The notes under the pieces were generated by a model that was given only the letters and a program-made list of their open reading frames with translations, did no database searches and was not told the origin of the DNA. Position numbers and translations under genes: made by a program. From the NCBI GenBank assembly GCA_964413705.1, contig CAYPSK010000001.1, positions 1 to 62,360 on the forward strand: a DNA stretch of 62,360 nucleotides, in the 5' to 3' direction. The first letter of the stretch is position 1; each line of letters begins with the position of its first letter. This DNA is from Candidatus Woesearchaeota archaeon. Lineage in GTDB: Archaea; Nanobdellota; Nanobdellia; Pacearchaeales; UBA284. Of this stretch, positions 5,528 to 62,273 are shown one piece after another.

Positions 5528-5576
5528 TTCACAGATAAGAACGATTTATTTAAATACTATATGATTTAACTTAATC

Positions 5577-46841: not shown

Positions 46842-46861
46842 ATATAATTAAACTGAAAAAC

Positions 46862-46869
46862 TTTATAAA
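46862..46869 (+). promoter_or_regulatory. TATA-box-like element
   Basis: TTTATAAA is centred about 24 nt upstream of the ATG at 46890. Confidence 0.3.
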
Positions 46870-46889
46870 GATTATGTTTTATATCTGTT

Positions 46890-47198: not shown

Positions 47199-47293
47199 GC
47201 AAATTATTTTGCTGTTTTCTTTATTTTCGTATACTTTTAATATACCTAATAGAATACAATAAGTTATTTAAAGAAAGATAAGCAAAATTAAAT

Positions 47294-47962
47294 ATGATAA
47301 ATGAAGAGGCTGTTAAAGATTCTTTTAAGAAAATAAAGAGTGAGATGCACTATCTTGCATCAGAAATATTCTCAATTAAGAACCAGATTCAAGAGCTCAA
47401 TGATCTTATTTCTCAGATAAATCTAATAAATACTCAATTTAATCAATCCAGCACATCTGCAACAGACACACAGCAAATAGAAGAAAATCCAGCAGATAAT
47501 ACCTATTATAATGCTGAATTAAGCCTTAATTCCCAAAGTTCCATAGGAAATGAAGGGGTTCCAGCAGACAGACAACAGACAGACAGCAGACAAATTATTG
47601 GGGGAACGCCTGAAAAAAAGGCCCCAATGGAACTAGATGAATCTCAAAACATATCTCATCTTATAGATAGCCTAAAAAATGATCTAAAGCAAAAGTTCAG
47701 GAGCCTTACTAAACAGGAATTCCTTGTTTTCTCTTTAGTATATTCTCTTACAGAGGAGAGTGGCGAGGCAAGCTACAAAGAGATAGCTCTTCGATCTAAA
47801 CTTACAGAGAGCTCAATTAGAGATTATATCTCGAGGCTGGAACATAAAGGAATTCCTCTTATCAAGGAGAAAAAGAACAACAGGCTCGTTGTTATTAAGG
47901 TCCCAAAAGAGCTTAGGGACATAGCTGCCCTCGATAGTCTAGTTAAGCTCAATAAGAACTAG
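47294..47962 (+). CDS. Coiled-coil protein with C-terminal LuxR/sigma70-region-4-like HTH
   Basis: The C-terminus LTKQEFLVFSLVY...SYKEIALRSKLTESSIRDYISRLEHKG fits this HTH type. An N-terminal coiled coil and a Q/S-rich linker precede it. Paralogous in architecture to 48341..49084. Confidence 0.45.
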   Translation: MINEEAVKDSFKKIKSEMHYLASEIFSIKNQIQELNDLISQINLINTQFNQSSTSATDTQQIEENPADNTYYNAELSLNSQSSIGNEGVPADRQQTDSRQIIGGTPEKKAPMELDESQNISHLIDSLKNDLKQKFRSLTKQEFLVFSLVYSLTEESGEASYKEIALRSKLTESSIRDYISRLEHKGIPLIKEKKNNRLVVIKVPKELRDIAALDSLVKLNKN

Positions 47963-48340
47963 TTAGTAATTAATGAAAATCGTTTAACCGAATATCTATT
48001 AAGGAGTATTCCTGCCCCAATAAGCAAGTTCTTAGACTCTTCAATTTTTTGTTATATTGCTGAATTAGGCCCTATTTCCTCTTTTTAGTGTATCCCTCTT
48101 TTTTACCTCAATTTGAATTTTTTTCAGCGCTTTTTTACTCAACTACGACTCTCACTCACTTTTACCTATTTTTTGATTTTTTTTGCCATTTCACTATTTT
48201 TTCTCTTATTTTCTAGCTCTCACGAACTCTCACTTTTTCCTTTTTTAGTGTTTTTTATAGCTAAAATAAGGGATTGTACGAACCTTTTTCCCATATAAAC
48301 CCTCTCTTTTGCTTATTTTAGGCCATTTTTTTACCTATGT

Positions 48341-49084
48341 TTATATGGTATTTTCCTCAATTTCTTCACTATTTTTTCTCTTAATTCTAGCTCTATTCTT
48401 CATCTGTCTGATCAAACTTTCCTTTATTTTTGGGGCAATATAATATCTCTTTTTTCCATTATTTTCAAGTTGTTCTAAAATCAAATCAGCACTTTTGCTT
48501 TTTATGCTGTTCAATTGTCCGCGAACAGTCGCTTTGCTTTTTCCCAGCAAAACAGAAATATCATCGCAGCTTAATTTTAATTCTGAATTCAAAACAATCC
48601 AAACAATTGTTCTTTCACTAGCACTTAAATTCTTCAAAAAATTGTTAAAAACTGATGTTTGAACACCTGTTTGAACACCTGTTTGAACACCTTCAACAGC
48701 TGTTTGTTTATAAACAGCTGTTTGTCGTTGTTTAAACACCTTGCCATATTTTGATGTTTCAAAGAAAGAAATGAAACCTTTTATATCGTCGACATCTGCC
48801 TTAATTTTGAGAATTTCTTCAAACAGCTGTTTAAATTGATCCTCGTGTTTACCCCGATGGGTGTTTAAATGGCCAATCCACACACTAATCTTGTCAATAT
48901 CATCACGAACAGAATCAAAAGAACTAGCAATTTCATCCTTTAACTTATCCTCTTTCTTTTTTCCAAACCACAAAAAACCCATATAATTTATATTTTTTCT
49001 TGTTTTTAAATCTTTCTGAAAAATAGAGAAAAAACACAAAAATCGGAGCTCTCTTGAAAGATAAGGAAAAAAATATAAACTCAA
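48341..49084 (-). CDS. Coiled-coil protein with C-terminal HTH (paralog-like of 47294..47962)
   Basis: The C-terminus LSASERTIVWIVL...SCDDISVLLGKSKATVRGQLNSIKSK fits the same HTH type. There is an internal QTAV / VQTG repeat linker. The likely start is MGFLWFGKKK at 48982. Confidence 0.45.
   Translation of the reverse strand: MSLYFFPYLSRELRFLCFFSIFQKDLKTRKNINYMGFLWFGKKKEDKLKDEIASSFDSVRDDIDKISVWIGHLNTHRGKHEDQFKQLFEEILKIKADVDDIKGFISFFETSKYGKVFKQRQTAVYKQTAVEGVQTGVQTGVQTSVFNNFLKNLSASERTIVWIVLNSELKLSCDDISVLLGKSKATVRGQLNSIKSKSADLILEQLENNGKKRYYIAPKIKESLIRQMKNRARIKRKNSEEIEENTI
48656..48691. repeat. Perfect 3 x 12-nt tandem repeat (TGTTTGAACACC) inside the 48341..49084 CDS
   Basis: Read directly from the sequence. 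It encodes (VQTG)3 on the minus strand. A nearby AACAGCTGTTTGT duplication encodes QTAV twice. Confidence 0.9.
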
Positions 49085-49099
49085 ACTTCCTAAAAAATC

Positions 49100-49246
49100 A
49101 TGGTGGCAACAGTAATATATATCTCTGCAATTCTGACCATAATAATTGGCATTTTGATTTTGATTTGGCCAAAATTGATTAGAATAGGCTTAGGAATATA
49201 CTTGATTTTGGTAGGTATTTTATCGCTTCTCGGAACTTTAATCTAA
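49100..49246 (+). CDS. DUF3096-like small two-TM membrane protein (48 aa; below the ORF-track cutoff)
   Basis: The translation MVATVIYISAILTIIIGILILIWPKLIRIGLGIYLILVGILSLLGTLI has the typical DUF3096 pattern. Confidence 0.5.
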   Translation: MVATVIYISAILTIIIGILILIWPKLIRIGLGIYLILVGILSLLGTLI

Positions 49247-49298
49247 AGAAGAAAGAGGAGATAAAAATAACAAGTTTTTTCTTAGTTAAAACTTCGCT

Positions 49299-49334
49299 AA
49301 ATCTTCTGCTCAAAGCGCAGAACTTTTAGCATGA
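49299..49334 (+). repeat. Direct repeat copy 1 (AAATCTTCTGCTCAAAGCGCAGAACTTTTAGCATGA)
   Basis: Aligns with 49890..49925. In frame it reads KSSAQSAELLA-stop, versus KSSARR-stop-KLLA-stop in copy 2. Confidence 0.6.
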
Positions 49335-49421
49335 AGGAAATTCTGAAAAATTTAAAAAAAGATCAAAAAATTGTGCAAAAAATCACCATAAAGATTAAAA
49401 AGCAGAGGATTATGGACTAAA

Positions 49422-49910
49422 ATGGCCAAAACAAGACGAAAAGCAGAAAAAGCATCGAGAGATAAAAAACCAAGAGTCTACTTTACATTCTTCAGACCAT
49501 ATAGTCCAAATCTTGCCACCGCAAAAGAGGCAGCGATAGTTGGGATACTGGCCCGTTATGTGAGAAATGATTTGAACCGTAGAAAGACACATCCCGGTTA
49601 CCCCTTCAATACAAGGGTTGCATATAAACCTAAAGAAGATATTGAAGAAAACCAATTAGGTGTTACTAACAAACCACGGGTAGAAGGATTAATAGAAATG
49701 GTTCAATTAGTTTTTAGATACTGTAATGGAAGAGTTCTTTCAGAAAGACTGCCAGGTTATTTCTTTGCAAATGTTTCAGATTTAGAGGAGTTTGGGCAAC
49801 TACCAAAAAGAACAAGAGATAGTCTAAGAGAAGAAGTTGAAAGACACTACAGATCTCATGATTCTCTAGATCTATTAATATTTGGAGTCAAATCTTCTGC
49901 GCGTCGCTAG
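49422..49910 (+). CDS. Hypothetical basic protein
   Basis: A 162-aa ORF with non-repetitive composition, flanked by the 36-nt direct repeats. No motif recognised. Confidence 0.4.
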   Translation: MAKTRRKAEKASRDKKPRVYFTFFRPYSPNLATAKEAAIVGILARYVRNDLNRRKTHPGYPFNTRVAYKPKEDIEENQLGVTNKPRVEGLIEMVQLVFRYCNGRVLSERLPGYFFANVSDLEEFGQLPKRTRDSLREEVERHYRSHDSLDLLIFGVKSSARR

Positions 49911-49925
49911 AAACTTTTAGCATGA
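49890..49925 (+). repeat. Direct repeat copy 2 (AAATCTTCTGCGCGTCGCTAGAAACTTTTAGCATGA)
   Basis: Covers the last codons and stop of 49422..49910. The flanks AAATCTTCTGC and ACTTTTAGCATGA are identical to copy 1. Confidence 0.6.
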
Positions 49926-49965
49926 GTAAAAAATAGGCCAAAAATCTCAAAAAACAACCAAAAAC

Positions 49966-49989
49966 TTCACTTAATCAGTATTAAGTGAA
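49966..49989. promoter_or_regulatory. Perfect palindrome TTCACTTAAT-CAGT-ATTAAGTGAA (recombinase core-site-like or operator)
   Basis: 10-nt perfect inverted arms. It can also be read as 9-nt arms with a 6-nt spacer TCAGTA. It lies 67 nt upstream of the recombinase ATG. Confidence 0.5.
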
Positions 49990-50027
49990 CCCCCAAATTC
50001 TCATCTTTTCCACAAAAAAACATAATA

Positions 50028-50037
50028 TTTATAAATA
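50028..50037 (+). promoter_or_regulatory. TATA-box-like element upstream of the recombinase gene
   Basis: TTTATAAATA is centred about 24 nt upstream of the ATG at 50056. Confidence 0.3.
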
Positions 50038-50055
50038 AGGTTCGTTTTAATCTTT

Positions 50056-50997
50056 ATGAAAAAAGAGGATGTTGATAGTTATTTAGAAAAAGTCTCTACA
50101 GAGATTAAACTTAGAGGTCTAAGCAAAAGGACAATAGAGATATATTCCTTCTTTTTAAAAAAATATTTAGAAAGTTTAAATGTTCCTGCAGAACAAGCAA
50201 CAAGACAAGATGTTAATAATTTTTTAGCAAGTCTTGTTGATATCTATAAAAATCGAACAAGAGCTCTTGCAACATCTTCAATTCGATTTTTGTACAAAGA
50301 AATTTTAGATAAACCTGAAATAATTATCAAAATCAAAAATCCTAAAAAGCAGGAGGTTCTTCCAACAATCCTGACAAAAGAAGAAGTTCAAAATCTTATT
50401 AATTCAGTTAAAAGTCAAAAGTCAAAATTAATCATTCTTTTTTTATATGCCACTGGAATAAGGGTTTCAGAATTAACCAGCTTAAAAATTAATGATCTTG
50501 ACCTCCAGTATAGTAATGGGATAGTTCATGGCAAAGGGGGCAAGCAAAGACAAATTTACTTATCTAAGAACCTTGTCGAAGAACTAAAATTGTATTTTAA
50601 CAATAAACAAGAAAAAGAAGGAAATATCCAAAGTAATACCTCTCAGAGCCCCTATCTTTTTCCCAGCCATAAAGACCCCCAATTTCCATTAACTGTAAGA
50701 AACATCCAAAAAATAATCAAAGTTGCAACAAAAAAAGCAGGAATCAGCAAAAAAGTAACACCACATACTTTAAGACATTCTTTTGCAACACATCACCTTC
50801 AATCAGGCACAGATATAAGAAAAATTCAGATGTTGCTTGGGCACGCAAGAATAGACACGACCCAGATATACACTAATCTTTCAAATAAAGATCTAGAAAC
50901 TCTGAAAAATCCTGCAGATGATTTAGATTTTTCAGTTAAAGAAGAAGAACAAGTAAAAATAGAAGAAATAGAGGATAAACATGAAAAGTTAATTTAA
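50056..50997 (+). CDS. xerA: Tyrosine recombinase (XerA/XerC/XerD-like integrase)
   Basis: An N-terminal SAM-like core-binding domain. The catalytic region has ATGIRVSEL (Arg I), HGKGGKQR, TLRHSFATHH (His-x-x-Arg) and LLGHARIDTTQIYT (His and the Tyr nucleophile). Confidence 0.85.
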   Translation: MKKEDVDSYLEKVSTEIKLRGLSKRTIEIYSFFLKKYLESLNVPAEQATRQDVNNFLASLVDIYKNRTRALATSSIRFLYKEILDKPEIIIKIKNPKKQEVLPTILTKEEVQNLINSVKSQKSKLIILFLYATGIRVSELTSLKINDLDLQYSNGIVHGKGGKQRQIYLSKNLVEELKLYFNNKQEKEGNIQSNTSQSPYLFPSHKDPQFPLTVRNIQKIIKVATKKAGISKKVTPHTLRHSFATHHLQSGTDIRKIQMLLGHARIDTTQIYTNLSNKDLETLKNPADDLDFSVKEEEQVKIEEIEDKHEKLI

Positions 50998-51000
50998 GAA

Positions 51001-51324
51001 TCAAGCGAAAACTTCTTCTTTTTCAGGTTTAACTAAAGCAGCTTCTGATAATTTCATATCAATTGCAAACAATGCTTTAGCAATAGGATTATCTAAGTTT
51101 AATTTGTATAATCCACTTTTGCCAATTTTTCTTGTCTTGATAACAATTCCCTGTTTGATTAATCCAGGGATAATATCTATTAAAGTAGTATAAGCAACAC
51201 TACTTTCTTTTGCAATTTGTGTCAAAGAGAAATCCATTGCAAAATTATCCAGTAAAAAATCCAAGATTCTTATCTTAGGAGTATCTCCAAGATATTTCAA
51301 TAAAAATGATTCTTCTTTTTCCAT
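51001..51324 (-). CDS. Winged-helix transcriptional regulator
   Basis: LGDTPKIRILDFLLDNFAMDFSLTQIAKESSVAYTTLIDIIPGLIKQGIVIKTRKIGKSGLYKLN is a complete wHTH pattern. Confidence 0.55.
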   Translation of the reverse strand: MEKEESFLLKYLGDTPKIRILDFLLDNFAMDFSLTQIAKESSVAYTTLIDIIPGLIKQGIVIKTRKIGKSGLYKLNLDNPIAKALFAIDMKLSEAALVKPEKEEVFA

Positions 51325-51458
51325 ACAATTACTAATTAACTAAGTATTTAAATCTTTCTATTTTCGTATTTTCTTTATTTATTTCATAATTAAATTACAT
51401 AAACAACAACCTTTATATATATGTTACAATTTAGATAGGCATTAAAAGAAGCGATAGA

Positions 51459-51740
51459 ATGGCAGAATATAATTTACTTAAGGCAAATCTTTTGTTTAAA
51501 CTATACAGAAAAGGAAAATGGGGCGGAGCCCACACACCAATAAGGAATTTGTTCCATCTTTTAGATCAATCTAGTATAAAAGAATCTAAAAAAGCATTAA
51601 GAGAATTAATCAATATGGGCTTGGTTCTTATCAAGCCATCAACAGGCGAAGAACACATTAGTCTGAATTCACATAAAAGCAAAGAAATTAAGGATTTTAT
51701 TCTAAATGTTCTAAAAATTGATCCTAAATTATTAGAATAG
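51459..51740 (+). CDS. Hypothetical small protein (possible wHTH)
   Basis: A 93-aa ORF, divergent from 51001..51324. ALRELINMGLVLIKPSTGEEHISLN looks like a wing segment. Confidence 0.35.
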   Translation: MAEYNLLKANLLFKLYRKGKWGGAHTPIRNLFHLLDQSSIKESKKALRELINMGLVLIKPSTGEEHISLNSHKSKEIKDFILNVLKIDPKLLE

Positions 51741-51793
51741 GCCCACAAGATACATTATCCGTATTGCACTTTTCCAAGAAAAAGATGATGTTT

Positions 51794-52420
51794 TTAGCCT
51801 ATTGGATAAGATTTGACGATATCTAAAAATTCATCTAGATTATCAGTAATTCTGCGTATAGACTCAACAACTTGAAAAATATCTGTAGACTCTTCAATAA
51901 CATTTCTTCTTGTTTCTCCAGGCAACCAAATCTCCCCACCCAAAAACCAGGAATTTAATCTAGGTTGCTTGTTTCTCCATTCTTCTCCAGTAAGGCCTTC
52001 AAGACCTGCCCACCCATACAGTTTTAAATTAACTAAAAAGTTATCATAAGCGCCTTTAAAAGCGTCTGAAAATCCAAAAAGAAATGTTTGTTTTTTAATT
52101 TGATCAAGACGAAGATATTCTGCGGTTATGCTTTCTAAAGGCGCTCCCTGGGTTCCTCGAATGTAATTTTCTGCTGGTATATCTCCAGAAATTTCTCTAA
52201 GGGCATTTTGTGGGCTAGGGGTCTGTTGTGGATTACTAATTTTCAAACAAAGGTGTTCTTCTAATAGTCTATGATGGTTTGAAGTTCCAAAAACCTTGTG
52301 CATATTTGTAGAGTTCACATAAATAAGTGCAGGAGGTTTATTTGAAGATAAATCTGCTAACCAATCTCCCCCTTGGGATGAATCTTGATTTTGTTTTCCT
52401 ATGTTTTCTTTTGGTGGCAT
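51794..52420 (-). CDS. Hypothetical protein
   Basis: A 208-aa ORF, last gene of a same-strand cluster. No motif recognised. Confidence 0.4.
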   Translation of the reverse strand: MPPKENIGKQNQDSSQGGDWLADLSSNKPPALIYVNSTNMHKVFGTSNHHRLLEEHLCLKISNPQQTPSPQNALREISGDIPAENYIRGTQGAPLESITAEYLRLDQIKKQTFLFGFSDAFKGAYDNFLVNLKLYGWAGLEGLTGEEWRNKQPRLNSWFLGGEIWLPGETRRNVIEESTDIFQVVESIRRITDNLDEFLDIVKSYPIG

Positions 52421-52478
52421 GTTAATAGTTTCAAGAAAGATTAGGGGTTTTTCTATTTTTAAAGATTTCTGTGATTTT

Positions 52479-52880
52479 TTACTTTGGCAGATGAATACAG
52501 ATTATATCTTTAGGTCTAATATTTGTTCCAAATGTTTCGTAAACATATTCAACAGCAAGGTGCGTTTCTCTTGCTACCATTGCCCTATTTTCTTTAATTT
52601 TTTCTTTATTTTCTCCAGTTAGTTCTAATGGATTTTCACGATTTGTATAATAACCCCATATCTGGTATGCAACTGCTTCTTCAACACATTTATGGCCTTG
52701 AGTAGTAAAATAAAGCATTTGTAAACTGCCTTTATCTGTTCGGCAAACACTATAGCCTGAGCCTGGAAAAGATGAAGGCTCTTGATTTGGTTTAGAATAC
52801 CTGCCACAACCAGAAAAAGTAAATAATACTGCACTTGCAGCAGCAGCAACAATTAAAGCGATTAATCCTTTATGTTTCAT
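52479..52880 (-). CDS. Putative lipoprotein
   Basis: Signal peptide plus a lipobox-like FSGC (MKHKGLIALIVAAAASAVLFTFSGC). Confidence 0.5.
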   Translation of the reverse strand: MKHKGLIALIVAAAASAVLFTFSGCGRYSKPNQEPSSFPGSGYSVCRTDKGSLQMLYFTTQGHKCVEEAVAYQIWGYYTNRENPLELTGENKEKIKENRAMVARETHLAVEYVYETFGTNIRPKDIICIHLPK

Positions 52881-52946
52881 ATATTCTAGAAACTCAGGTA
52901 TTTTTAAGTTTTATTGTGATTTTTGGTGATTTTTGAGAAGTGTGCT

Positions 52947-53213
52947 TTAAAAGAAAAAGTCTAAAAGCTGTAATAAAAAACCAAGGCCCAATAAAACCAA
53001 AAATACAAACAATTTCTTTTCTTCTTTAGATATCTTAACTTCTTTAAGTCCTTTCTTGGTTTGATCGTAACGATATACTCTGCGCCTTTGTTCATCATCT
53101 GGATATTCAATTATCTGAAAAGATTTGGGTTTTCCAAAATTTATTAGAGTATCAAAAGCAAAATAAAAAGAACCTCCAAAACTCAAAATTAATCCGATTA
53201 AAGTTAAAATCAT
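52947..53213 (-). CDS. Small two-TM membrane protein
   Basis: 88 aa, with hydrophobic N- and C-terminal helices around a charged loop. Confidence 0.4.
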   Translation of the reverse strand: MILTLIGLILSFGGSFYFAFDTLINFGKPKSFQIIEYPDDEQRRRVYRYDQTKKGLKEVKISKEEKKLFVFLVLLGLGFLLQLLDFFF

Positions 53214-53225
53214 TTTTTATTTTTC

Positions 53226-53522
53226 TTATCTTATCAGGAGTTTTATCATTTCACTTATAGGGCCACAAATACCAATAACTTTTAAAATTGCCCAAATAAT
53301 AAATAAAACTATTGATAAAGGTAAAAAAGCAACAAATCCTCGTGTTTCAGTTCTTGTAAAAAAAGCTTCGCCAAAAAACAGCCATATCGCACCAAAAATC
53401 GCAACTAAAATAAGAATTTTATCACAATAATTTTGCGATAACAACCCCCAAAAAAGTAAGATTATTAAGAGTATAAGAATTATCCAAGCGAAGATAGTTT
53501 CTGCTTGTCCTTTCTTATTCAT
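53226..53522 (-). CDS. Small membrane protein with class III (pilin-like) signal-like N-terminus
   Basis: MNKKGQAETIFAWIILILLIILLF has KKG|Q followed by a hydrophobic helix. Two further TM helices follow. Confidence 0.4.
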   Translation of the reverse strand: MNKKGQAETIFAWIILILLIILLFWGLLSQNYCDKILILVAIFGAIWLFFGEAFFTRTETRGFVAFLPLSIVLFIIWAILKVIGICGPISEMIKLLIR

Positions 53523-53685
53523 TTTTTAAAACTTTTTTTAACTCCTTAAAACAAAAATCACACAAAGGAATTTCAGCTTGAGGAGAAGAGTATATGCCTT
53601 TAATTAAGATATTGTATTTAGCAGAGTGGCCCCTACAAACACATTGTTCGGAAATTGAATTACATTTAATTTCTACTCTACTCAT
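53515..53685 (-). CDS. Cys-rich 56-aa protein (below the ORF-track cutoff)
   Basis: The hand translation is MSRVEIKCNSISEQCVCRGHSAKYNILIKGIYSSPQAEIPLCDFCFKELKKVLKNE, with C-x6-CxC ... CxxC. Its stop overlaps the start of 53226..53522 by 8 nt, suggesting translational coupling. Confidence 0.35.
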   Translation of the reverse strand: MSRVEIKCNSISEQCVCRGHSAKYNILIKGIYSSPQAEIPLCDFCFKELKKVLKNE

Positions 53686-53755
53686 TCAAAATCCAATAAT
53701 AACTTATATTTAAACCTATCGCTTGGTACTAAGCACTTGGTAGTGGTAAGAAATA

Positions 53756-53763
53756 TTTATAAA
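53756..53763 (+). promoter_or_regulatory. TATA-box-like element
   Basis: TTTATAAA is centred about 25 nt upstream of the ATG at 53785. Confidence 0.3.
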
Positions 53764-53784
53764 TCCTTTTTTGTTAAGTAAATT

Positions 53785-54273
53785 ATGAAAAAAGAGGACG
53801 AAGAAAACAATTCTCCATTTGCAAGAGAAAGTGAAACACATGAAAGAATTCATTCTCATCTTAAAGCACATCCAAGAGGATTAACAACACAAGAAATAGA
53901 ACAGCAAACAGGAATTTCTAGAAAAGCAGTTGAAAAACATCTTCAAATGCTTTTATTTTCTAATGATATTTATATGAAACAACTTGGAAGTACAAGGGTT
54001 TATTATCCAAATCATAGGTATCATCATATAGATTTTAAATATTTTGATGTTGGCAAAAAAAGATTTTATATAGATTTAATTGAAAATGATTATGGTAAGT
54101 CTGTTCTTGTACAGCAAAAAATCAAGGAAAAAGACAAATGGATTACAAAAGGAAGTATCTTTATTCCAATAAATGCAACACAACAATTCTTAAAAAGCTT
54201 TAGCGATATAATAAACTCTAAGAGATTAAAAGATGAAATTAAAAAGGAGAAAGAAAATGGGAACAGAACATAA
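53785..54273 (+). CDS. Winged-helix protein upstream of the methyltransferase (possible R-M controller or regulator)
   Basis: IHSHLKAHPRGLTTQEIEQQTGISRKAVEKHLQMLLFSNDIYMKQLGSTRVYY is a wHTH pattern. Its 3' end overlaps the methyltransferase start. Confidence 0.5.
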   Translation: MKKEDEENNSPFARESETHERIHSHLKAHPRGLTTQEIEQQTGISRKAVEKHLQMLLFSNDIYMKQLGSTRVYYPNHRYHHIDFKYFDVGKKRFYIDLIENDYGKSVLVQQKIKEKDKWITKGSIFIPINATQQFLKSFSDIINSKRLKDEIKKEKENGNRT

Positions 54274-55072
54274 AATAATCTTAGGTGATGCTCTAAAAGT
54301 GTTAAAGAAAATTCCAGATAATTCTGTTGATCTGGTGTTTGCTGATCCACCTTACAACATGTCTAAGAAAAAAGGACTTGGTTGGGCTTATAGCAAACAT
54401 GTAACTATGCAGCAAGAATGGGATATGTTCTCTAAAGATGACTTTTTTAAGTTCAATAAAGAATGGATAGCAGAATGTTTAAGAGTTTTGAAACATGGTG
54501 GCAGTTTATGGATTTCTGGCAGTTTTCACAATATTTATCAAATTGGTTTTATCCTCCAACAACTACACCCAGAAATTAAAATAAATAATAGCATTGTTTG
54601 GTTTAAACCAAATGCTCAACCCAACATAACCTGCAGATTTTTTACAGAAAGTACAGAGCATTTAATTTGGGCTACAAAGAATGGAGATAAGAAGAAATGG
54701 AAATTTAATTATCAATTTACTAAAGATCATATTTTAGATAACATAAATCCAGAAGGGAAACAAACTAGGAATGTTTGGAGTATTCCCCTAACTCCTAAAA
54801 ATGAGAAATGGGCAGGAGCACATCCAACACAAAAACCATTTGAATTATTAAGACGAATCATTCTAAGTTCTACAGATGAAGGTGATACGGTTCTTGATCC
54901 TTTTGTAGGTTCTGGCACAACATCAGTAGTTGCTAAGTATTATGGCAGAAATTCAATAGGGATCGAAGTAGATAAAAAATATCAAGATATAATCAAAAAA
55001 AGATTAGAAAAATCACAAAAAACTGCTTCTGGAGAAGAAGCAGAGGTTATCTTTGAGGATTTTAAAGATTAA
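54233..55072 (+). CDS. DNA methyltransferase, beta-class (N6-adenine or N4-cytosine; DPPY type)
   Basis: Motif IV LVFADPPYN is near the N-terminus and AdoMet motif I DPFVGSGTT is near the C-terminus, which is the circularly permuted beta order. The likely start is the ATG at 54257. Confidence 0.85.
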   Translation: MKLKRRKKMGTEHKIILGDALKVLKKIPDNSVDLVFADPPYNMSKKKGLGWAYSKHVTMQQEWDMFSKDDFFKFNKEWIAECLRVLKHGGSLWISGSFHNIYQIGFILQQLHPEIKINNSIVWFKPNAQPNITCRFFTESTEHLIWATKNGDKKKWKFNYQFTKDHILDNINPEGKQTRNVWSIPLTPKNEKWAGAHPTQKPFELLRRIILSSTDEGDTVLDPFVGSGTTSVVAKYYGRNSIGIEVDKKYQDIIKKRLEKSQKTASGEEAEVIFEDFKD

Positions 55073-55677
55073 TTCATATACCAAAGAGGTTTGAGATTAC
55101 TTTCACATTTTTTATGTTTTTTATTCTCTTTATAAGTATATTTTGTTATTGGTGGTTGCCCATTACATACACTCATACATAAATTATCTATCTCTTTAGG
55201 GTTATCAATAAATTCTCTAATCCAACCCTGAAAAAACAGATTGGCAGGTTCAAAATAACTTTCTTTATTATATGCATACTCTTGTTCAATAAGAAATAAT
55301 TGTGCCAAAACTCCAATAATAAGTAAATCATTAAGATAATGCTCAAACTTTTCTTTTGACAGTTTAGCAAGTTCCTTTTCTGGGTTCGATCCATAAAAAA
55401 TATTGTCAAAAGCAAGTAATAAGTCTCTCTTTAAATCTTGTCTGCTTCTAACTCGGAGGTTTAAGTCAAGCATAACTCTAAGGTGATTTGGTCTAAATTC
55501 TCTTTCACCTTCTTTTAGCCATACCTGAAAATTCTTGTTTATATCATATCCTTTAAATCTTGGTGAAAGTATTGATGGCCTAAATAGCTGAACTTCTATG
55601 CCCTCTTTCTTAAATATAGTTTCCTTTTTATCAAAAGGCAGGTTTATCACGATCTTAAGCATTTCTGATTTAAGCAT
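55069..55677 (-). CDS. Hypothetical protein; positional candidate for the cognate restriction endonuclease
   Basis: Convergent with the methyltransferase, with a 4-nt overlap of the 3' ends. 202 aa. No catalytic motif could be assigned with confidence. Confidence 0.35.
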   Translation of the reverse strand: MLKSEMLKIVINLPFDKKETIFKKEGIEVQLFRPSILSPRFKGYDINKNFQVWLKEGEREFRPNHLRVMLDLNLRVRSRQDLKRDLLLAFDNIFYGSNPEKELAKLSKEKFEHYLNDLLIIGVLAQLFLIEQEYAYNKESYFEPANLFFQGWIREFIDNPKEIDNLCMSVCNGQPPITKYTYKENKKHKKCESNLKPLWYMN

Positions 55678-55713
55678 AAAACATTAAGAAACCCCAACTT
55701 TTTAAAAGGATCC

Positions 55714-55905
55714 TTGCCTAGTCTCTTCATGGCAATAATGGGTAGAACCAAAAGAGCAAATGCGCAGAGATGGAATGCTATTAATAAGCAAAGAGAAAAA
55801 GAAAATGATTGTGAACCTAAAAAAGAAGAAAAAAAGATTTCTAAAGGGGAAATGGGGAAATTAATTCAAATAATAAGGGAAGCGGCAGCAAAAAAGTCTG
55901 ATTAG
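55714..55905 (+). CDS. Possible small basic protein
   Basis: A 63-aa Lys/Arg/Glu-rich ORF. Its coding status is uncertain. Confidence 0.25.
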   Translation: MPSLFMAIMGRTKRANAQRWNAINKQREKENDCEPKKEEKKISKGEMGKLIQIIREAAAKKSD

Positions 55906-56064
55906 CCATTTTTCGCCCCCTCACACCACGCGCAACCCTTCGCAGGACACTCCCCATTCAAAAGATCTAGGGCCTCTTTCCAAACTCGCTCTACTATCTT
56001 TACATTGACTTCCATCTTAATAAGATTTGTATTGAATAAGACTTCTCCTGTCTCTAAAACTCCT
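55902..56064 (-). pseudogene. Orphan 3' end (53 codons + stop) of a Cas4-like nuclease gene
   Basis: The minus frame reads GVLETGEVLFNTNLIKMEVNVKIVERVWKEALDLLNGECPAKGCAWCEGAKNG-stop. This is colinear with the C-terminus of 57049..57768. Nucleotide identity is about 85% by eye over about 150 nt. No upstream part of the gene is present. Confidence 0.65.
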
Positions 56065-56419
56065 AGTTTTTATTCTTTTCTAAATCTTTTTTTATTTTTT
56101 GGATCTTTTCTTTTAAGTCCGGAAGATCTTTTTTGATAATATTCCAAACTATGTTCAAATCGACTCCAAAATAATGGTGAATCATTTTATCCCTTGTTCC
56201 TACAATCTCTTTCCAAGGTATTGAAGAATATTTTTCTTTTAAATTATCTGAAATATTTTTTATTGCTTCACCTATAATCTCTATCTCTCTTACAATTGCA
56301 CTCTGTTTCATCCTATTTGAAATTAATTCTTCCTTGTCCATATTTTTAGAAAATTCATCTATTGCATTGATACTTTCTAAAATATGTTTAATAAATATTA
56401 CATCTTCTTTATTATTCAT
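56063..56419 (-). CDS. hepT: HEPN (DUF86) toxin of a HEPN-MNT module
   Basis: WKEIVGTRDKMIHHYFGVD carries the Rx4H HEPN motif. 118 aa. 4-nt overlap with the upstream MNT gene. Confidence 0.8.
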   Translation of the reverse strand: MNNKEDVIFIKHILESINAIDEFSKNMDKEELISNRMKQSAIVREIEIIGEAIKNISDNLKEKYSSIPWKEIVGTRDKMIHHYFGVDLNIVWNIIKKDLPDLKEKIQKIKKDLEKNKN

Positions 56420-56889
56420 ATTATCCTCACTTCCTGACTTAAAATCTTATCTTTAAGATAAGGGCTTATTCCATTATAGCTTACTAAATCTACTTTTCTT
56501 TTTAATGCTTTTTCAAGTTCAAATTGAACTCCAACAAACTGCAAACCCATCCCCTTAGGGGGCTGTATTAAAATATCAATATCACTATTTTTTTTCTGTT
56601 CTCCCTTTACGTAACTTCCAAATATTCCTGCTTTTTTTATTTTATTTTTTTTTAAAATTTTAATTATTTTCGGTTTTATTTTTTCTATGACACTTTTCTT
56701 TGCATCTTTCTTTAATTTATTTTTTAGAAGCACTTTATCTGCTTTTTTTTCTTTTTCAGCTAATTCCTTATCAAACAAGTCAACACCCAAATATTTTCTT
56801 TTTTTTGAAACTTTATTTCCTTTTCTAACAGAGATAACTCTATAATAATATTTTTTTTTATTTCTCTTCTGTATTTCAGTATATACCAT
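56416..56889 (-). CDS. mntA: Minimal nucleotidyltransferase (MNT) antitoxin with a Lys-rich N-terminal extension
   Basis: GIFGSYVKGEQKKNSDIDILI matches GSx(n)SDxD of the pol-beta-type NTase. An extra basic segment of about 70 aa lies at the N-terminus (KKKYYYRVISVRKGNKVSKKRKYLG). Confidence 0.8.
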   Translation of the reverse strand: MVYTEIQKRNKKKYYYRVISVRKGNKVSKKRKYLGVDLFDKELAEKEKKADKVLLKNKLKKDAKKSVIEKIKPKIIKILKKNKIKKAGIFGSYVKGEQKKNSDIDILIQPPKGMGLQFVGVQFELEKALKRKVDLVSYNGISPYLKDKILSQEVRII

Positions 56890-57048
56890 GTTGTGTGTAT
56901 GTCTACATTGTTTATAAATCTTTCTGTAGACATATAAGCGAAGGGCATAAAAAATAGTTTGCTATATTATTTTAATCAATTATGAAAAATTGTGAAGAAA
57001 TAACTACTATTCTTCCTCTTTCTCCTCCTTAAACTCCTCCCAAACTTT

Positions 57049-57768
57049 TTATTTTTCTCCTTTTCCTTCACACCACTCACACCCCTTCTTAGGACACTCT
57101 CCATTCAAAAGCTCAAGGGCCTCTTTCCAAACCTTTTCTACTATTTTTATATTGACTTCCATCTTAATGAGATTTGTATTGAACAAGACTTCCCCTGTCT
57201 CTAAAACCTCTTTTGGATGATAGAATAATAGGAAAAAATGATCCCCTGTTTCAAATCCGTTTTTTTGTAATAAGAAATTATAGATATTCTGCTGCAACCT
57301 ATAGTGCTCTGCAGTATCTTCTTTTAATGGAAAGCCCCGAGTCTTATAATCTAAAACAAATAACTTGTTTCCATCAACTAATATATTATCAACAGCCCCA
57401 TGCAAAACATTTTCTTGTTCATCTGTCCAGGTAATTCCCTTAAAATTATTTCTCCATTTATCTAATAACTCTTTGTTGTTGAATAACTTCATGTTCTTGC
57501 AATGAACATGCTCTCTGATTTCAGGAGGCAAAGTCCCTTGTTCAGCAAACTTGTCAAAATGTTTTTTTAAAACTCCATCCATGCCACTTGGAAGACTTGG
57601 AAAAATCCCTAAAGGTCTTTTCCAAACTTCATGTTGTGTAAGCCAGAAACATCTTGGGCACTCTTTCATCAAGTTTAGTGTGCTTGGGGATAATTTGTAT
57701 GTTTGTGGCATTTTGTATAAAAAGGCTAGAGAATTGGATGTTTTAAGAGTTTCTATTCTAAGAACCAC
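57049..57768 (-). CDS. Cas4/RecB-like PD-(D/E)XK nuclease with Cys cluster, stand-alone
   Basis: An N-terminal Cys (ECPRCFW). Nuclease motifs GAVDNILVD...LFVLDYKTRG (D...D/ExK) and QQNIYNFLL (QhxxY). The C-terminal cluster is CPKKGCEWC. The likely start is MPQTYK at 57711. Confidence 0.7.
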   Translation of the reverse strand: MVLRIETLKTSNSLAFLYKMPQTYKLSPSTLNLMKECPRCFWLTQHEVWKRPLGIFPSLPSGMDGVLKKHFDKFAEQGTLPPEIREHVHCKNMKLFNNKELLDKWRNNFKGITWTDEQENVLHGAVDNILVDGNKLFVLDYKTRGFPLKEDTAEHYRLQQNIYNFLLQKNGFETGDHFFLLFYHPKEVLETGEVLFNTNLIKMEVNIKIVEKVWKEALELLNGECPKKGCEWCEGKGEK

Positions 57769-57772
57769 AGAA

Positions 57773-58129
57773 CTAATTGTAGACTAATACTTCTTGTCTG
57801 GGTGTTTTATGCCCCAAGTCCAAAGTAAGAGGGATTTGAACATTGACCTCTTTATCTTCTTTCTTGAATGTTATCATAAGTAAAACATAAACATGATTGG
57901 TTTTATAGTTTACAGACATTTTCATGCTTTTAATGTTCTTCAAGATGTTTTTGTCTATTCCTAAGTTCTCACTCGCATCCATAATCTCTATACCACAAAC
58001 AAGATTTTCATGATTTACATCTAAAACAAAATCCCCTATATCTATAGAAGCTTTTACTTTCTCCTCATTCGATATAAAGAGTATATCGCTATTTTCATCG
58101 TAATCTATTGTTTTAATTGGTTTTGCCAT
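57773..58129 (-). CDS. DUF2283-like protein (putative antitoxin)
   Basis: The N-terminus IDYDENSDILFISNEE... is the characteristic DUF2283 (YuzE-like) opening. It overlaps the upstream DUF4258-like gene by 25 nt. Confidence 0.55.
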   Translation of the reverse strand: MAKPIKTIDYDENSDILFISNEEKVKASIDIGDFVLDVNHENLVCGIEIMDASENLGIDKNILKNIKSMKMSVNYKTNHVYVLLMITFKKEDKEVNVQIPLTLDLGHKTPRQEVLVYN

Positions 58130-58422
58130 TTTCTATTGCTATTCCAAGCACTTATAACTTTTAAACCTTTTGGATTTATTTCAATGATAATTTCACTAAT
58201 GATAATCAAAGAGTATTTTTTGCTCATCTTAAACCATAGCTTAAACATATCTTTTTCTTTTCCTCTTTCAATTTTTTCTAATTTATTAGTTTGAGATAGA
58301 AAACTTCGAATCATGCTTTCATTTATGGGTCTTTCTTTAGTCCTTTTATAAAAATGAGGATCAAAAAGAACATCATTTTGATTTAATTCTTCAAGAAAAC
58401 TTTTAACCTCATTTAATTCCAT
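58105..58422 (-). CDS. DUF4258-like protein (putative toxin)
   Basis: 105 aa. FDPHFYKRTKERPINESMIRSFL resembles the H...R..(E/R)R.I opening of DUF4258. It is paired with a DUF2283-like gene, as in predicted TA modules. Confidence 0.45.
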   Translation of the reverse strand: MELNEVKSFLEELNQNDVLFDPHFYKRTKERPINESMIRSFLSQTNKLEKIERGKEKDMFKLWFKMSKKYSLIIISEIIIEINPKGLKVISAWNSNRKWQNQLKQ

Positions 58423-58537
58423 TTCGCATTCCTATTTTCTATAAGAAGACTATTATTTCAATTCTTTTAAGAGTTTCGTTTTCCGATTCTTTAAAACAAA
58501 AGGCAAAGTTTTTAAGTTTGTAACTCTCTAATTTTAT

Positions 58538-59353
58538 TTGAAAATGTTGCGAGCGACATCAAAAGTAAGAGAAATAGCAGAACGAATGGAAAAGTATAGA
58601 TGGGATATCCCGCGCCAGATAGAATATATGAAACAGGACCCTAGTACTTATGCTGATTGTCACACTCTAAGGCAGTATAGAGGGCTGATTTTTGAACTGG
58701 CTGCACAAGATGTCTTAAGGGGCCTTTCTTTTGATCCAGAAGCTCAAATGGAGCCAATTACTGGGGATCATCCAGATTACTGGGAAACTTTTGGCAGGGG
58801 CACTTCTAAAAAATTCGGGCCTGTTTGCTTGTCTGGAAAAGCCATGCTAACAAGAAAACGAGAGTATGATTCAGTTGTTAATATTGCAGGCACACCTACT
58901 GTATTTGAAGCCACTCTTTCAACTAGGAGGGTTCAAGAACTCGCAAACCCAACTAAAATTATAACTCGCCTACAGCCCCTTGAACATAGATTAAATCAAG
59001 AGGTCGCTTATGTTATTGTCACCATAGCTGATTCATTTGCAGGCACAAATCCTGAATCACGCGATATAAGGCGCAGTGTCTATGATTTCATGAATAAGGG
59101 TGGGGTGATAGTTAGAGCTCCATTCAGTTGCAGAGACTTTAAAGAAGAGGTCACTGGGCGCGTAATAGAATCTGCTTTTCCTGTTCATTTCGAGTCTTCT
59201 GCTCCTACCCCTGTGTATTCTTGGATGTTTGTGAGAATCGGAAAGTCTGGGAGGAAGTCAAATGGTACGTATACGCCCCACAAATCAAGAGAGACAGACG
59301 CTCATGTGAGAAGGTTTTTAAAATCAGAAGGAAAAAGACTTGGTCTTGTTTAA
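58538..59353 (+). CDS. Hypothetical protein, compositionally GC-richer than its surroundings
   Basis: A 271-aa ORF with non-repetitive composition. The segments GLIFELAAQDVL and EYDSVVNIAGTPTVFEATLS could be a degenerate nuclease-like core, but this is unproven. Confidence 0.45.
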   Translation: MKMLRATSKVREIAERMEKYRWDIPRQIEYMKQDPSTYADCHTLRQYRGLIFELAAQDVLRGLSFDPEAQMEPITGDHPDYWETFGRGTSKKFGPVCLSGKAMLTRKREYDSVVNIAGTPTVFEATLSTRRVQELANPTKIITRLQPLEHRLNQEVAYVIVTIADSFAGTNPESRDIRRSVYDFMNKGGVIVRAPFSCRDFKEEVTGRVIESAFPVHFESSAPTPVYSWMFVRIGKSGRKSNGTYTPHKSRETDAHVRRFLKSEGKRLGLV

Positions 59354-59470
59354 GGCTTTCGCCCATATTCCCCCTCCTTATTTTTCAGAACTCTGTGATT
59401 TTTATTCTCTATTCATTGCGGGCACCGTGATTCTTTTTCGATTTTGCGCTCAGTCGCCCACGGTTGTTTT

Positions 59471-59800
59471 TTATCTTCTTTCCTGATAATGCTTAACTAC
59501 AAAATCTAAGCCCTTTCTGATGCTTGGAATTAAAGAACGAGCATGATCTTTTATGAAATTTGCAGTAGATTCTCCAATACCGCTATAATATGCTGCAACA
59601 AATGCTTTTCCTGCCTCATATTTCATAAGAACATGATCTCTAAATTCTCTAAGAACATCAACTTGTGGGGCATTTATATTATTATAAGCCACTGTGGCAA
59701 CAAAGCAGATGCCTTTTCTTGGTATAGCTGGAGGACCATTAGATTCTGCAGGACCAATCTCCTTAAGGCCTCCCATCAAATTTTTATTATCAAATCTCAT
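59471..59800 (-). CDS. Hypothetical protein with a C(F/I)xAT.AY ... LR.FRD motif
   Basis: GICFVATVAYNNINAPQVDVLREFRDHVL is a motif I recall from a widespread domain of unknown function. I cannot name it reliably. Confidence 0.45.
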   Translation of the reverse strand: MRFDNKNLMGGLKEIGPAESNGPPAIPRKGICFVATVAYNNINAPQVDVLREFRDHVLMKYEAGKAFVAAYYSGIGESTANFIKDHARSLIPSIRKGLDFVVKHYQERR

Positions 59801-60086
59801 GTTTCTATCTGGCCTTTAGACTTTTTAAGGATTATTGCTTTCTATTATAATATAAAATCCTTTCGCCTCCTTCGCTCGGCTGATTCTTTTAAGAAACAGA
59901 AAACGAAATATTTAAATCTCTAAAAAACATATATAAAACATAGGGAAACAGACCCTGACGAAACCTATGCTTGACATAGTTAGTAGGATTGACTGGCCTA
60001 CTTACCCTATGTGTTCTAGGAATTTAGACAGATGATTTTACCATGTGGTTTAGAAATTCCAGGATTTTTAAGTTTTTGGTGATTTT

Positions 60087-60689
60087 TTGGATGATGAAGA
60101 ACATAAATTATTTAAAGAAGTTCGCATAATCTCACATATGAAAAAGAGAAAAATGAAGAAAATGAAAAAAAAGTGGGTACATCACTCCTTTAAAAAATAT
60201 AATCCTAATTTTCCAAAGTGGTTTGCTCAAGAAAAAAATAAATTAAAAAAGGTTCTTGGAAAAATTAAAAATGCAAAAATTGAGCACATTGGAAGCACAG
60301 CTGTTCCAGGGCTTGGAGGCAAAGGCATAGTAGATATTGCGATTTTTTTGCCAAGACAAGGGATAGATGCAGCAAAAAAGAAGATATCTAGTCAGGGATA
60401 TAAAGAGTGGCCTGTTCCTAAAAAACTGAATTTTTTTTCTTTTAAAAAATTTTATGGTCCAGAAACCTCCCTAAGCAAAGTTTTCCATATTCATATAACT
60501 GCAGATAAAAAAGTATTTGAAAAAATGTTTGTCTTTAGGGATTATCTAAGAGAGCGTCCAGATATTTCAGAGAAGTATGCAAAACTTAAGAAAAAAGCAT
60601 CTAAAATATGCAAGGGCAGCTTTATAGCCTATAGGAAATTGAAAAATCCATTTATCAAATCCATTATTAAAAAAGCTGAGAAAAATTAA
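60087..60689 (+). CDS. GrpB (UPF0157) family nucleotidyltransferase-fold protein
   Basis: HIGSTAVPGLGGKGIVDIAI and FRDYLRERPD are GrpB signatures. The true start is probably an internal Met (around 60129-60162). Confidence 0.7.
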   Translation: MDDEEHKLFKEVRIISHMKKRKMKKMKKKWVHHSFKKYNPNFPKWFAQEKNKLKKVLGKIKNAKIEHIGSTAVPGLGGKGIVDIAIFLPRQGIDAAKKKISSQGYKEWPVPKKLNFFSFKKFYGPETSLSKVFHIHITADKKVFEKMFVFRDYLRERPDISEKYAKLKKKASKICKGSFIAYRKLKNPFIKSIIKKAEKN

Positions 60690-60737
60690 AAGCCCTATCG
60701 ATGGTCCGATGAATAAAGAGATTTCTGAAAAAGATAA

Positions 60738-61361
60738 TTAAAAATAATCTTTAAAATTTTCTCGGATTTCATCAAAACTCTGTTCTGAAAGGTCAAAATT
60801 TCTCTGAGGCCCAGTATTATTAAGGTCTTCAAGAAGCTCAAAAAATTCGTCTTTATCAATTGGGTCAAGATGAAATTCTTTGCATACTTCTTTTATCTCT
60901 TGGATTATTCTGTCTGCATCTTCTTTTTCATGGACAATTCTCTCTGCTTCAAAATAATCCAATCCTGTTGTTTTTACAAGCGCGAATTCAGTGTCTTTAT
61001 AATTAAAAATATAAGCCTTTGTAGCAATTGTGACCCCATGGTTCCATTCTAACAATTTGAGCATTTCAACTGCTTTTTCAAAGTCACTAGTTTGTATTGG
61101 GATAAGAATCTCTTCTCTGCCTTCGCATCCGCTAAGTTTTCCGTATTTTAAAACTAATTCGGGTTTTTTATTTGTAATCCTTATCCTAAGGTCAACTAAT
61201 TCATTTTCAACATCTTCCCTAAGCGGCCTAGCCCCTTTTCTTAGAAAAAGCATAGTAAATCTATCCTTCTCCTTAACAAACTGGACGTCCTTATCTTTTC
61301 TAAATTTTTCAAGAGTTTCTTCAAAGTTCTCCACTCTTCCACGGACTTCCACTTCAATCAT
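60738..61361 (-). CDS. CYTH-domain protein (CyaB-like class IV adenylyl cyclase / triphosphatase fold)
   Basis: An N-terminal MIEVEVRG (ExExK-like), then DLRIRI, LVLKYGK and a later FEAER, as in triphosphate tunnel metalloenzymes. Confidence 0.65.
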   Translation of the reverse strand: MIEVEVRGRVENFEETLEKFRKDKDVQFVKEKDRFTMLFLRKGARPLREDVENELVDLRIRITNKKPELVLKYGKLSGCEGREEILIPIQTSDFEKAVEMLKLLEWNHGVTIATKAYIFNYKDTEFALVKTTGLDYFEAERIVHEKEDADRIIQEIKEVCKEFHLDPIDKDEFFELLEDLNNTGPQRNFDLSEQSFDEIRENFKDYF

Positions 61362-61427
61362 AAGAGTTTCAAGTGATTATACTATTAAAATTTTCGCTTT
61401 ATTTTCAAGAAACAGTTATACCCCGCT

Positions 61428-61952
61428 TTAAGCAAAAGCAGCCAAACCTGTTAAAACAGCTGCAAATGCAACCCATAGAAGATAGGGCACTAGCATCCAG
61501 GCTGCTTTCTTGTCAATTCTCCATGAAAGAATAAGCATGAATATAATAGATATCTCCATGGCAATTATTTCAATAAAAGCAAACAAAGGATTTTTTAAAG
61601 TAAAGAACAAAAGACTCCATACTATATTAAAGATAAAATTAAATCCATAAATCCAGACAATTCTTGGCTTATCATCCTCTTTTGCATTTGTCCAGGTAAA
61701 ATACAAAGCCAAGGCAATAAGTACAAAGAGAATTGTCCATGCAATTGGAAAAACAAAATTCGGCGGCGTTATACTTGGTTTAATCTGCTGATACCAAGCA
61801 GAGCCAGTTCCCTGGCTAGTAAATATACCCCCAAGATAAGCCACAAAAATAACAATGATGAAAGATATAAGAAATACTTTCCAGTTGAACTTCTTTTTCT
61901 TTGATTTTATCTTTGTAATCTTCTTTTTAACTGATTTCTTTTTTCTCACCAT
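61428..61952 (-). CDS. tspO: TspO/MBR family tryptophan-rich sensory protein
   Basis: WYQQIKPSITPPNFVFPIAWTILF..., five TM helices, and the Trp-rich pattern typical of TspO. Confidence 0.85.
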   Translation of the reverse strand: MVRKKKSVKKKITKIKSKKKKFNWKVFLISFIIVIFVAYLGGIFTSQGTGSAWYQQIKPSITPPNFVFPIAWTILFVLIALALYFTWTNAKEDDKPRIVWIYGFNFIFNIVWSLLFFTLKNPLFAFIEIIAMEISIIFMLILSWRIDKKAAWMLVPYLLWVAFAAVLTGLAAFA

Positions 61953-62066
61953 TTTTTACCTCTTTTAATAGACATAATACCAAAACTCTAACTTCTTTTA
62001 AATAGTTCGTTTACTAAAGGGTTTTTATAAAAAGTAAATTAAAATAAAATTTAAATTAATACTTCT

Positions 62067-62273
62067 TTATTCCTTCTTAAACAAGAAATAAATAGTATAT
62101 AGTGCAGCCACACCCACTAGGATGTAGACTATTGTTGAAACAACAGAACCCACTCCAAAGATAGCATCAACAAGGTTCCAATTAAAAATTCCAACTAATC
62201 CCCAGTTTAGACCGCCTATAATCACAAGGATTAAAGCAATCCAATCTACAGAAACTGTATTCGTACCTAACAA
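62067..62273 (-). CDS. DUF378 small membrane protein
   Basis: VDWIALILVIIGGLNWGLVGIFNWNLVDAIFG is the DUF378 signature. Confidence 0.7.
   Translation of the reverse strand: MLGTNTVSVDWIALILVIIGGLNWGLVGIFNWNLVDAIFGVGSVVSTIVYILVGVAALYTIYFLFKKE

Follow-up and report, generated by a model that had tools for sequence, protein, structure and literature searches.

A methyltransferase-linked protein family, candidate GATC restriction effector, in a variable island of a Woesearchaeota archaeon

The stretch of DNA analyzed here (the window) comprises 62,360 nucleotides (nt), positions 1 to 62,360 of contig CAYPSK010000001.1 of Candidatus Woesearchaeota archaeon. It is contig C1 of assembly GCA_964413705.1 (G000), which spans 0.81 Mb with 34% GC and is 82% complete. 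An earlier interpretation made from the letters alone, hereafter the sequence-only reading, had described a compact defense island between positions 53,785 and 59,353. We followed up this proposal, with emphasis on an adenine DNA methyltransferase gene and a convergent gene encoding a protein of 202 amino acids (aa). These two genes probably form a mobile two-gene restriction-modification (R-M) module, in which the 202-aa protein would be a new-fold effector restricting at GATC.

All ten proteins encoded in this region were searched against Pfam, NCBIfam and PADLOC, and eight of them against PHROGs. The relatives compared were G000 and 40 other genomes, including the congeners G001, G002, G004 and G005; the closest congener is G002 (Lhr helicase 93% identical). 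The 202-aa gene was followed in a main set of 49 loci and in an independent phylum sample of 21 loci (401 genomes), together about 70 loci.

The locus and the methyltransferase-linked 202-aa protein

The features of the locus are collected in Table 1. All open reading frames (ORFs) listed by the sequence-only reading are present at their positions. Profiles and coordinates also confirmed the arrangement that it had described at the left end: a winged helix-turn-helix (wHTH) gene overlapping a beta-class DPPY methyltransferase gene, the end of which overlaps the convergent 202-aa ORF by 4 nt (55069-55072). The methyltransferase matches PF01555 from end to end, and the motif FADPPYN precedes DPFVGSGTT, which is the order of the beta class. 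Its nearest relative in the PDB is CcrM (2e-53).

Table 1. Features of the variable island in the window, in order of position.
Feature	Position	Strand	Evidence and remarks
Strain-specific variable island, about 10 kb	50040..60099		blastn/tblastx against G002 contig C19
Tyrosine recombinase, left edge of the island	50056..50997	+	PF00589 1.8e-42 and SAM-like N-terminal domains
wHTH protein, 162 aa	53785..54273	+	HTH_11, HTH_24, DUF7342 ~1e-4, all below cut-offs; overlaps methyltransferase start
Beta-class N6-adenine DNA methyltransferase	54233..55072	+	PF01555 1e-61; PADLOC MTase_II 2e-85; second ATG at 54257
202-aa methyltransferase partner, candidate new-fold GATC restriction effector	55069..55677	-	Conserved linkage; confident model
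Small basic protein, 63 aa (58 aa from ATG 55729)	55714..55905	+	Homologue in G001
Remnant copy of Cas4-like gene 3' end, 143 nt	55918..56060	-	87% identical to 57065-57207; tblastn 86% over residues 187-236
HepT (HEPN) RNase toxin	56063..56419	-	PF01934 1.8e-31; NCBIfam HepT_toxin 1e-13, below cut-off; Rx4H motif RDKMIH
MntA nucleotidyltransferase antitoxin	56416..56889	-	PF18765 9e-17; PF01909 1e-13; PADLOC PDC-S09 7e-23; GSx10DxD
Solo Cas4-like PD-(D/E)XK nuclease with Cys cluster	57049..57768	-	PF12705 5e-10; phrog_31195 9e-42; PADLOC Cas4 1e-7
DUF2283 protein, putative antitoxin	57773..58129	-	PF10049 3e-8; 100% aa identity to G001
105-aa partner of the DUF2283 gene, putative toxin	58105..58422	-	Overlaps DUF2283 gene by 25 nt
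GC-rich segment bracketed by 30-nt inverted repeats (58466-58495, 59887-59916)	58466..59916		Repeats 80% complementary
GC-rich 271-aa orphan gene	58538..59353	+	GC 40-43% vs ~30% around
Non-coding 185-bp segment	59849..60033		92% identical to G001 (blastn)

The association of the 202-aa protein with adenine methyltransferases is conserved. In 47 of the 49 loci of the main set, a Dam-like, beta-class or M3 adenine methyltransferase gene lies within about 2 kb of the 202-aa gene; the other two loci are at a contig edge. M3 designates a third, permuted N6_N4 type of adenine methyltransferase, which partners the family in about nine loci. The methyltransferase gene is mostly convergent with the 202-aa gene, the two being -10 to +100 nt apart. 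An adjacent adenine methyltransferase was found in 20 of the 21 loci of the independent sample, including those of remote homologues detected by profile only (E 1e-15 to 1e-7), and eight of the 21 are trios of Dam, 202-aa and beta genes. Dam-like and beta methylases are both present around 202-aa homologues in about 18 other loci. With adjacency conserved in about 70 loci, the role of methyltransferase partner proposed by the sequence-only reading is strongly supported.

The partners are interchangeable: 202-aa proteins that are 65 to 80% identical pair with Dam-like enzymes, with beta enzymes, or with both. Beta methyltransferases paired with 202-aa homologues elsewhere are 71-87% identical to that of the window. 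In G001, the gene facing the 78%-identical 202-aa homologue in convergent orientation encodes a Dam-like D12 enzyme (PF02086, 6e-71), the closest solved relatives of which are DpnM (4e-65) and EcoDam (1e-44). No Dam-like gene was found in G000, and the window holds the beta methylase only.

Several of these loci have further components. Four Dam-like methyltransferase matches were observed on three short contigs of G001 (C26, C40 and C43), a genome with only one 202-aa gene. In a Woesearchaeota metagenome-assembled genome (MAG; CAYIGH010000002.1, locus L016:5612-7183), a MORC-like GHKL ATPase gene (HATPase_c_3 and Morc6_S5) is located between the 202-aa homologue and the beta methyltransferase. 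Two bacterial loci, L043 (positions 1255-5612) and L044 (Haloimpatiens lingqiaonensis), display a row of five genes, encoding a DpnII-family nuclease, Dam-like, beta and permuted N6_N4 methylases, and a divergent 202-aa homologue. A type IIG-like methylase follows the row, which makes an R-M super-cluster in cultured bacteria.

The family comprises at least 767 homologue clusters at 90% identity, the best 120 of which are at 67-80% identity, and 91 clusters at 50% clustering. The relatives that bear a name in public records are Pace-, Woese- and Nanoarchaeota. The gene is present in two of the 41 relatives and in 21 of the 401 phylum genomes (about 5%), over 21 genera. Identity ranged from 58 to 77% in 42 of 44 loci and was 39% and 45% in the other two; the hosts of these 44 loci are DPANN, Methanothrix and Methanofastidiosum MAGs, and Clostridium and Haloimpatiens genomes. 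Homologues about 60% identical were found in MAGs labelled Methanothrix, Methanofastidiosum, Thermococci, Tissierella, Omnitrophota and Firestonebacteria, and in the genome records of Clostridium sp. KNHs214 and Haloimpatiens lingqiaonensis. Neither tblastn on annotated plasmids and phages nor a scan of viral contigs detected the family. The ratio of nonsynonymous to synonymous substitution rates (dN/dS) was 0.12 for the comparison with G001, indicating purifying selection.

The 202-aa, 63-aa and 271-aa proteins, which had been singled out as unknowns, gave no match in Pfam, NCBIfam, PADLOC or PHROGs, and none with a housekeeping family. For the 202-aa protein, PF04556 was not matched either, neither its own sequence nor a 41-sequence profile retrieved a match among PDB sequences, and we found no description of the family in the literature. 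The AlphaFold (AF2) model, built with the 41-sequence alignment, is of high confidence (predicted local distance difference test, pLDDT, 95.6; predicted template modeling score, pTM, 0.92) and consists of a helix at the N terminus, a sheet of four strands and a bundle of helices. Foldseek detected no PDB match to this model at E<=0.001 (best E 0.67, template modeling (TM) score 0.21), and no PabI-family entry was among the 50 best PDB matches. The sole viral match, from BFVD, was to a Streptomyces phage protein (TM 0.55) that is itself uncharacterized and adds no information.

Three residues, P63, E131 and Q132, are invariant in an alignment that includes homologues as distant as 21% identity, and H65, L72, Q126, L127 and R154 are nearly so. 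In the model, the conserved residues are on helices, whereas PD-(D/E)XK residues would be expected on strands. None of the recognized nuclease folds (PD-(D/E)XK, HNH, GIY-YIG, PLD, HALFPIPE) was detected by family, PDB-sequence or Foldseek searches. The earlier remark that no known endonuclease motif is visible holds, and the protein is not recognizable as a nuclease.

The genes flanking the module are less consistently associated with it. The wHTH protein is a possible regulator, and its gene was not found at the other loci carrying the 202-aa family. A fragment of a wHTH paralogue (42% identical) is present on a short contig of G000 (C66:2-265), as is a second beta-class methyltransferase (44% identical; C48:657-1394); a second wHTH-methylase module in this genome is possible. 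On the other side, the 63-aa ORF has a 72%-identical homologue in G001, located upstream of the Dam-like methyltransferase. With a dN/dS of 0.06 in this comparison (dS saturated), it is a real gene under purifying selection. A further homologue lies between R and M at locus L018. The ORF accompanies only three of about 50 modules and was not found at the remaining loci; as a general component, a controller of the R-M module is thus unsupported.

Target and function of the 202-aa protein

Among the 4-bp palindromes of G000, GATC is depleted most strongly, with 1074 sites observed versus 2788 expected (observed/expected ratio, O/E, 0.39; 0.83-1.11 for the others). It is also the most depleted one in G001, G002, G004 and G005 (O/E 0.39-0.60 over the five genomes). 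The depletion is a genus-wide lineage trait and supports GATC specificity weakly; since congeners in which no 202-aa gene was found show it just as strongly, we rejected it as specific evidence for the target of the 202-aa protein. The partners provide a better argument. Near-identical 202-aa proteins pair with DpnM-like methylases, beta methylases or both, and the Dam-like partners are 61% identical to the Dam-like enzyme directly beside the DpnII nuclease gene in locus L050.

From this context we infer both the specificity of the module and its DNA-damaging activity. The beta-class enzyme would methylate adenine, most likely in GATC, and the 202-aa protein would most likely attack DNA in which GATC is unmethylated. 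It would take the place of the DpnII nuclease in a cassette resembling DpnM-DpnA-DpnB. A precedent is the PabI family, also found as a methyltransferase-linked gene, which proved to be a restriction enzyme with a new fold and unexpected chemistry (PMC10273834).

Several observations weigh against such a GATC restriction effector. No motif or fold of a nuclease or glycosylase and no catalytic mechanism is recognizable in the protein, the activity of which is deduced solely from context, and an identity of 60-80% between domains is more than one expects of a restriction enzyme. GATC is also depleted (O/E 0.43-0.60) in G002, G004 and G005, where 202-aa and Dam-like genes were not found and a DpnII-family gene was likewise not detected. 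Among PDB entries, CcrM, which acts on GANTC, is the nearest to the window methylase. Finally, loci L043 (Clostridium sp. KNHs214), L044 (Haloimpatiens) and L050 carry a DpnII-family nuclease (PF04556, 4e-98) beside the 202-aa homologue. In these three loci, Dam-like and beta methylases accompany the nuclease, and the homologue has its own M3 methylase in the two Firmicutes, L043 and L044. They could hold two adjacent R-M systems, with the 202-aa protein in one of another specificity, or two effectors of one specificity, or the 202-aa protein could have an accessory role.

That accessory role is the basis of one alternative, in which the protein does no damage but reads GATC adenine methylation (a SeqA-like role) or tunes the methyltransferase, and travels with methylase genes. 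The complete DpnII-type systems (nuclease, Dam and beta) alongside in L043, L044 and L050 would fit it, as would the unusually high conservation and the failure to detect a nuclease fold; the model is, moreover, largely helical with many conserved Arg on one helix, which might suit DNA binding. However, no DpnII-family nuclease (PF04556) was found in G000 or the 40 other relatives to provide the restriction. The patchy, cross-domain distribution and the tightly convergent or overlapping layout with swappable methyltransferase classes are signatures of selfish R-M systems and not of regulators, and the invariant polar residues E131 and Q132, with the near-invariant H65, resemble an active site more than a binding surface. 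We therefore regard a reader or accessory factor as unlikely. An R-M module with a target other than plain GATC (GANTC or a longer site), whose methyltransferases merely look GATC-type, is quite improbable. It could account for the proximity to CcrM among solved structures, for the M3 partners and for the separate DpnII system beside the module in three loci. But GANTC is not depleted in G000 (O/E 0.93-0.98, against 0.39 for GATC), DpnM and EcoDam are the nearest relatives of the Dam-like partners, which also resemble the L050 enzyme, and closely similar 202-aa proteins swap between the Dam-like and beta classes.

The clustering of genes in the island might also have no functional meaning, the site being an integration hotspot for unrelated selfish cassettes, with the 63-aa and 271-aa ORFs playing no part in defense. 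The differing cassette histories (94% versus about 77% nucleotide identity with G001, where the cassettes are on different contigs), the rarity of the 63-aa ORF beside the modules and the near-uniqueness of the 271-aa gene, on a separate GC-rich segment, all point that way. This agrees with our preferred explanation for everything except the 202-aa gene, the methyltransferase link of which is not explained by chance co-location; as a whole, we consider this reading highly improbable. A bolder form of the effector hypothesis, which we find doubtful but worth stating, is that the family represents small, mostly helical effectors with mechanistically new chemistry on unmethylated GATC, for example base excision. 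The invariant His, Glu-Gln and Arg would then form the site, and the family would have spread between archaea and bacteria with interchangeable methylases. For the 202-aa protein, glycosylase activity is pure speculation.

A GATC restriction effector thus remains our preferred function for the 202-aa protein. In DPANN archaea, GATC-type methylases apparently have this family as their usual partner, and because Pfam, NCBIfam, PADLOC and PHROGs do not contain it, the defense-annotation pipelines in current use would score such methylases as orphans. If the proposal is true, it would add a new small GATC-directed enzyme, and censuses of archaeal R-M systems would be corrected.

Cassettes of the variable island

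The module belongs to a neighborhood that varies between strains. By blastn and tblastx, collinearity between G002 and the window extends over 41656-50040 and 60099-62251, and the intervening 50040-60099 has no counterpart in G002. In the same slot, G002 has an unrelated insert of 1.9 kb with a serine-recombinase-like ORF, and G001 has a larger island in which the only common cargo is the Cas4-like gene and the DUF2283/105-aa pair. This variability is the behavior expected of a defense island, as the sequence-only reading had anticipated. The island is real, but its extent had been underestimated at 5.6 kb: it covers about 10 kb and begins at the tyrosine recombinase gene. The region singled out by the sequence-only reading makes up the right-hand two-thirds of this island, which occupies a recombinase-associated hotspot in the small genome of a DPANN-type archaeon.

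The recombinase is the strongest PF00589 match in G000. In G001 and G005, tyrosine recombinases are found on the contig of Lhr, 5-8 kb away or less; they are 36-39% identical, versus 70-72% for Lhr. The gene of the window may encode the integrase of an element or a fast-evolving chromosomal XerA. The latter possibility weighs against our explanation of the island, as does a search of its borders in which no direct attachment (att) repeats were found. The borders have a 20-nt inverted match (18/20) at 49948-49967 and 60070-60089. The left half of the island contains, at 51001-53716 on the minus strand, a series of small ORFs (56-208 aa) with no family matches.

The hepT and mntA genes overlap by 4 nt and form an ordinary type VII toxin-antitoxin pair, their identification being confirmed by PF01934 and PF18765. 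They are bracketed by the intact Cas4-like gene and by the remnant of its 3' end, located just downstream of hepT. This bracketing suggests that the cassette may have been inserted or exchanged by recombination at the end of the Cas4-like gene.

PF12705 and the Cas4 models likewise bear out the stand-alone Cas4/RecB-like nuclease. The protein contains the motifs VLDYK and QQNIY and a four-Cys cluster (CPRC...CPKKGCEWC), and its orthologue in the G001 island is 87% identical (aa). The gene is surrounded by toxin-antitoxin genes and not by a cas operon. Since no Cas1 (PF01867) was found in the 82%-complete G000, it is not considered a CRISPR adaptation gene; it encodes a solo nuclease that belongs to a virus-associated family, and no CRISPR context was detected around it.

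The next two genes had been labelled a DUF4258/DUF2283-like pair. DUF2283 was recovered, and the DUF4258 label is unsupported: the 105-aa protein gave no DUF4258 match at E<=0.1, and none was seen among the best 120 of its 320 homologue clusters. Named clusters are from DPANN archaea. The cassette at 57745-58478 is 94% identical in nucleotides to G001:C1:42834-43570, the Lhr helicase proteins of the two genomes being only 72% identical. Because this value is far above the genomic background, the two genes appear to be a toxin-antitoxin-like pair recently exchanged by horizontal transfer with the congener.

The 271-aa gene is indeed richer in GC than its surroundings, as had been noted. Its only homologues among 5.8 billion proteins form one cluster at 61% identity, the genomic context of which is uninformative, and one weak partial match was found in 400 phylum genomes. 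The AF2 model is unusable (pLDDT 32). No evidence of a defense role was found for this gene, which had been taken for a candidate. The GC-rich segment of 1.4 kb encloses this gene and a 109-aa ORF, and its bracketing by inverted repeats is the geometry of a small mobile insert. At its right end, the 185-bp segment may be a recombination junction. Its counterpart in G001 is 0.5 kb from the same DUF2283/105-aa pair, on the opposite side; it is single-copy in G000, and gave no Rfam match and no significant folding signal. Elsewhere in the window, ARAGORN predicted a tRNA-Phe of 96 nt, which is unusually long and has no Rfam call.

The sequence-only reading had presented five components within one compact island. 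They are independent cassettes and not a single system: because G001 shares some of them in the slot, the DUF2283/105-aa pair with almost unchanged nucleotides, and carries its 202-aa gene on a different contig from the island of that slot, the cassettes have separate histories. The island thus appears to be a mosaic of separately acquired cassettes, as expected of a variable defense or addiction hotspot. It illustrates how such a recombinase-linked hotspot gathers and swaps these cassettes in a very small genome.

Comparison with known systems

The cargo cassettes are close to known types. The HepT-MntA pair has both domains, the overlapping genes and the Rx4H and GSx10DxD motifs of type VII systems, but its MntA has a basic N-terminal extension of 60 aa and the cassette is bracketed by the duplicated Cas4-like 3' end. 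The Cas4-like protein shares the PD-(D/E)XK_1 domain, RecB-type motifs, terminal Cys cluster and strong viral PHROG match of stand-alone archaeal and viral Cas4-family nucleases. The third pair resembles DUF4258-DUF2283 pairs in consisting of two small genes that overlap, with DUF2283 downstream, but differs in its upstream 105-aa protein.

To our knowledge, restriction enzymes with new folds are rare. PabI is reportedly the last clear example, and is said to have recast restriction as base excision. Like the PabI-family restriction glycosylases (HALFPIPE fold), the 202-aa gene is a mobile, methyltransferase-linked gene with no known nuclease motif and a previously unseen fold. However, the two families share no similarity in sequence or fold, and PabI targets GTAC and pairs with other methylases.

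Another parallel is provided by the DpnII, MboI and LlaDCHI cassettes, composed of an alpha methylase (DpnM), a beta methylase (DpnA) and a nuclease (DpnB). The 202-aa gene is not a nuclease of the DpnII/MboI family, the window module has the beta methylase without a Dam-like gene, and three of the 202-aa loci hold a real DpnII nuclease in addition. The modules nevertheless share the methyltransferase classes of these cassettes, many of them likewise have a Dam-like and a beta methylase flanking a third gene, and they are similarly compact, mobile and patchy in distribution.

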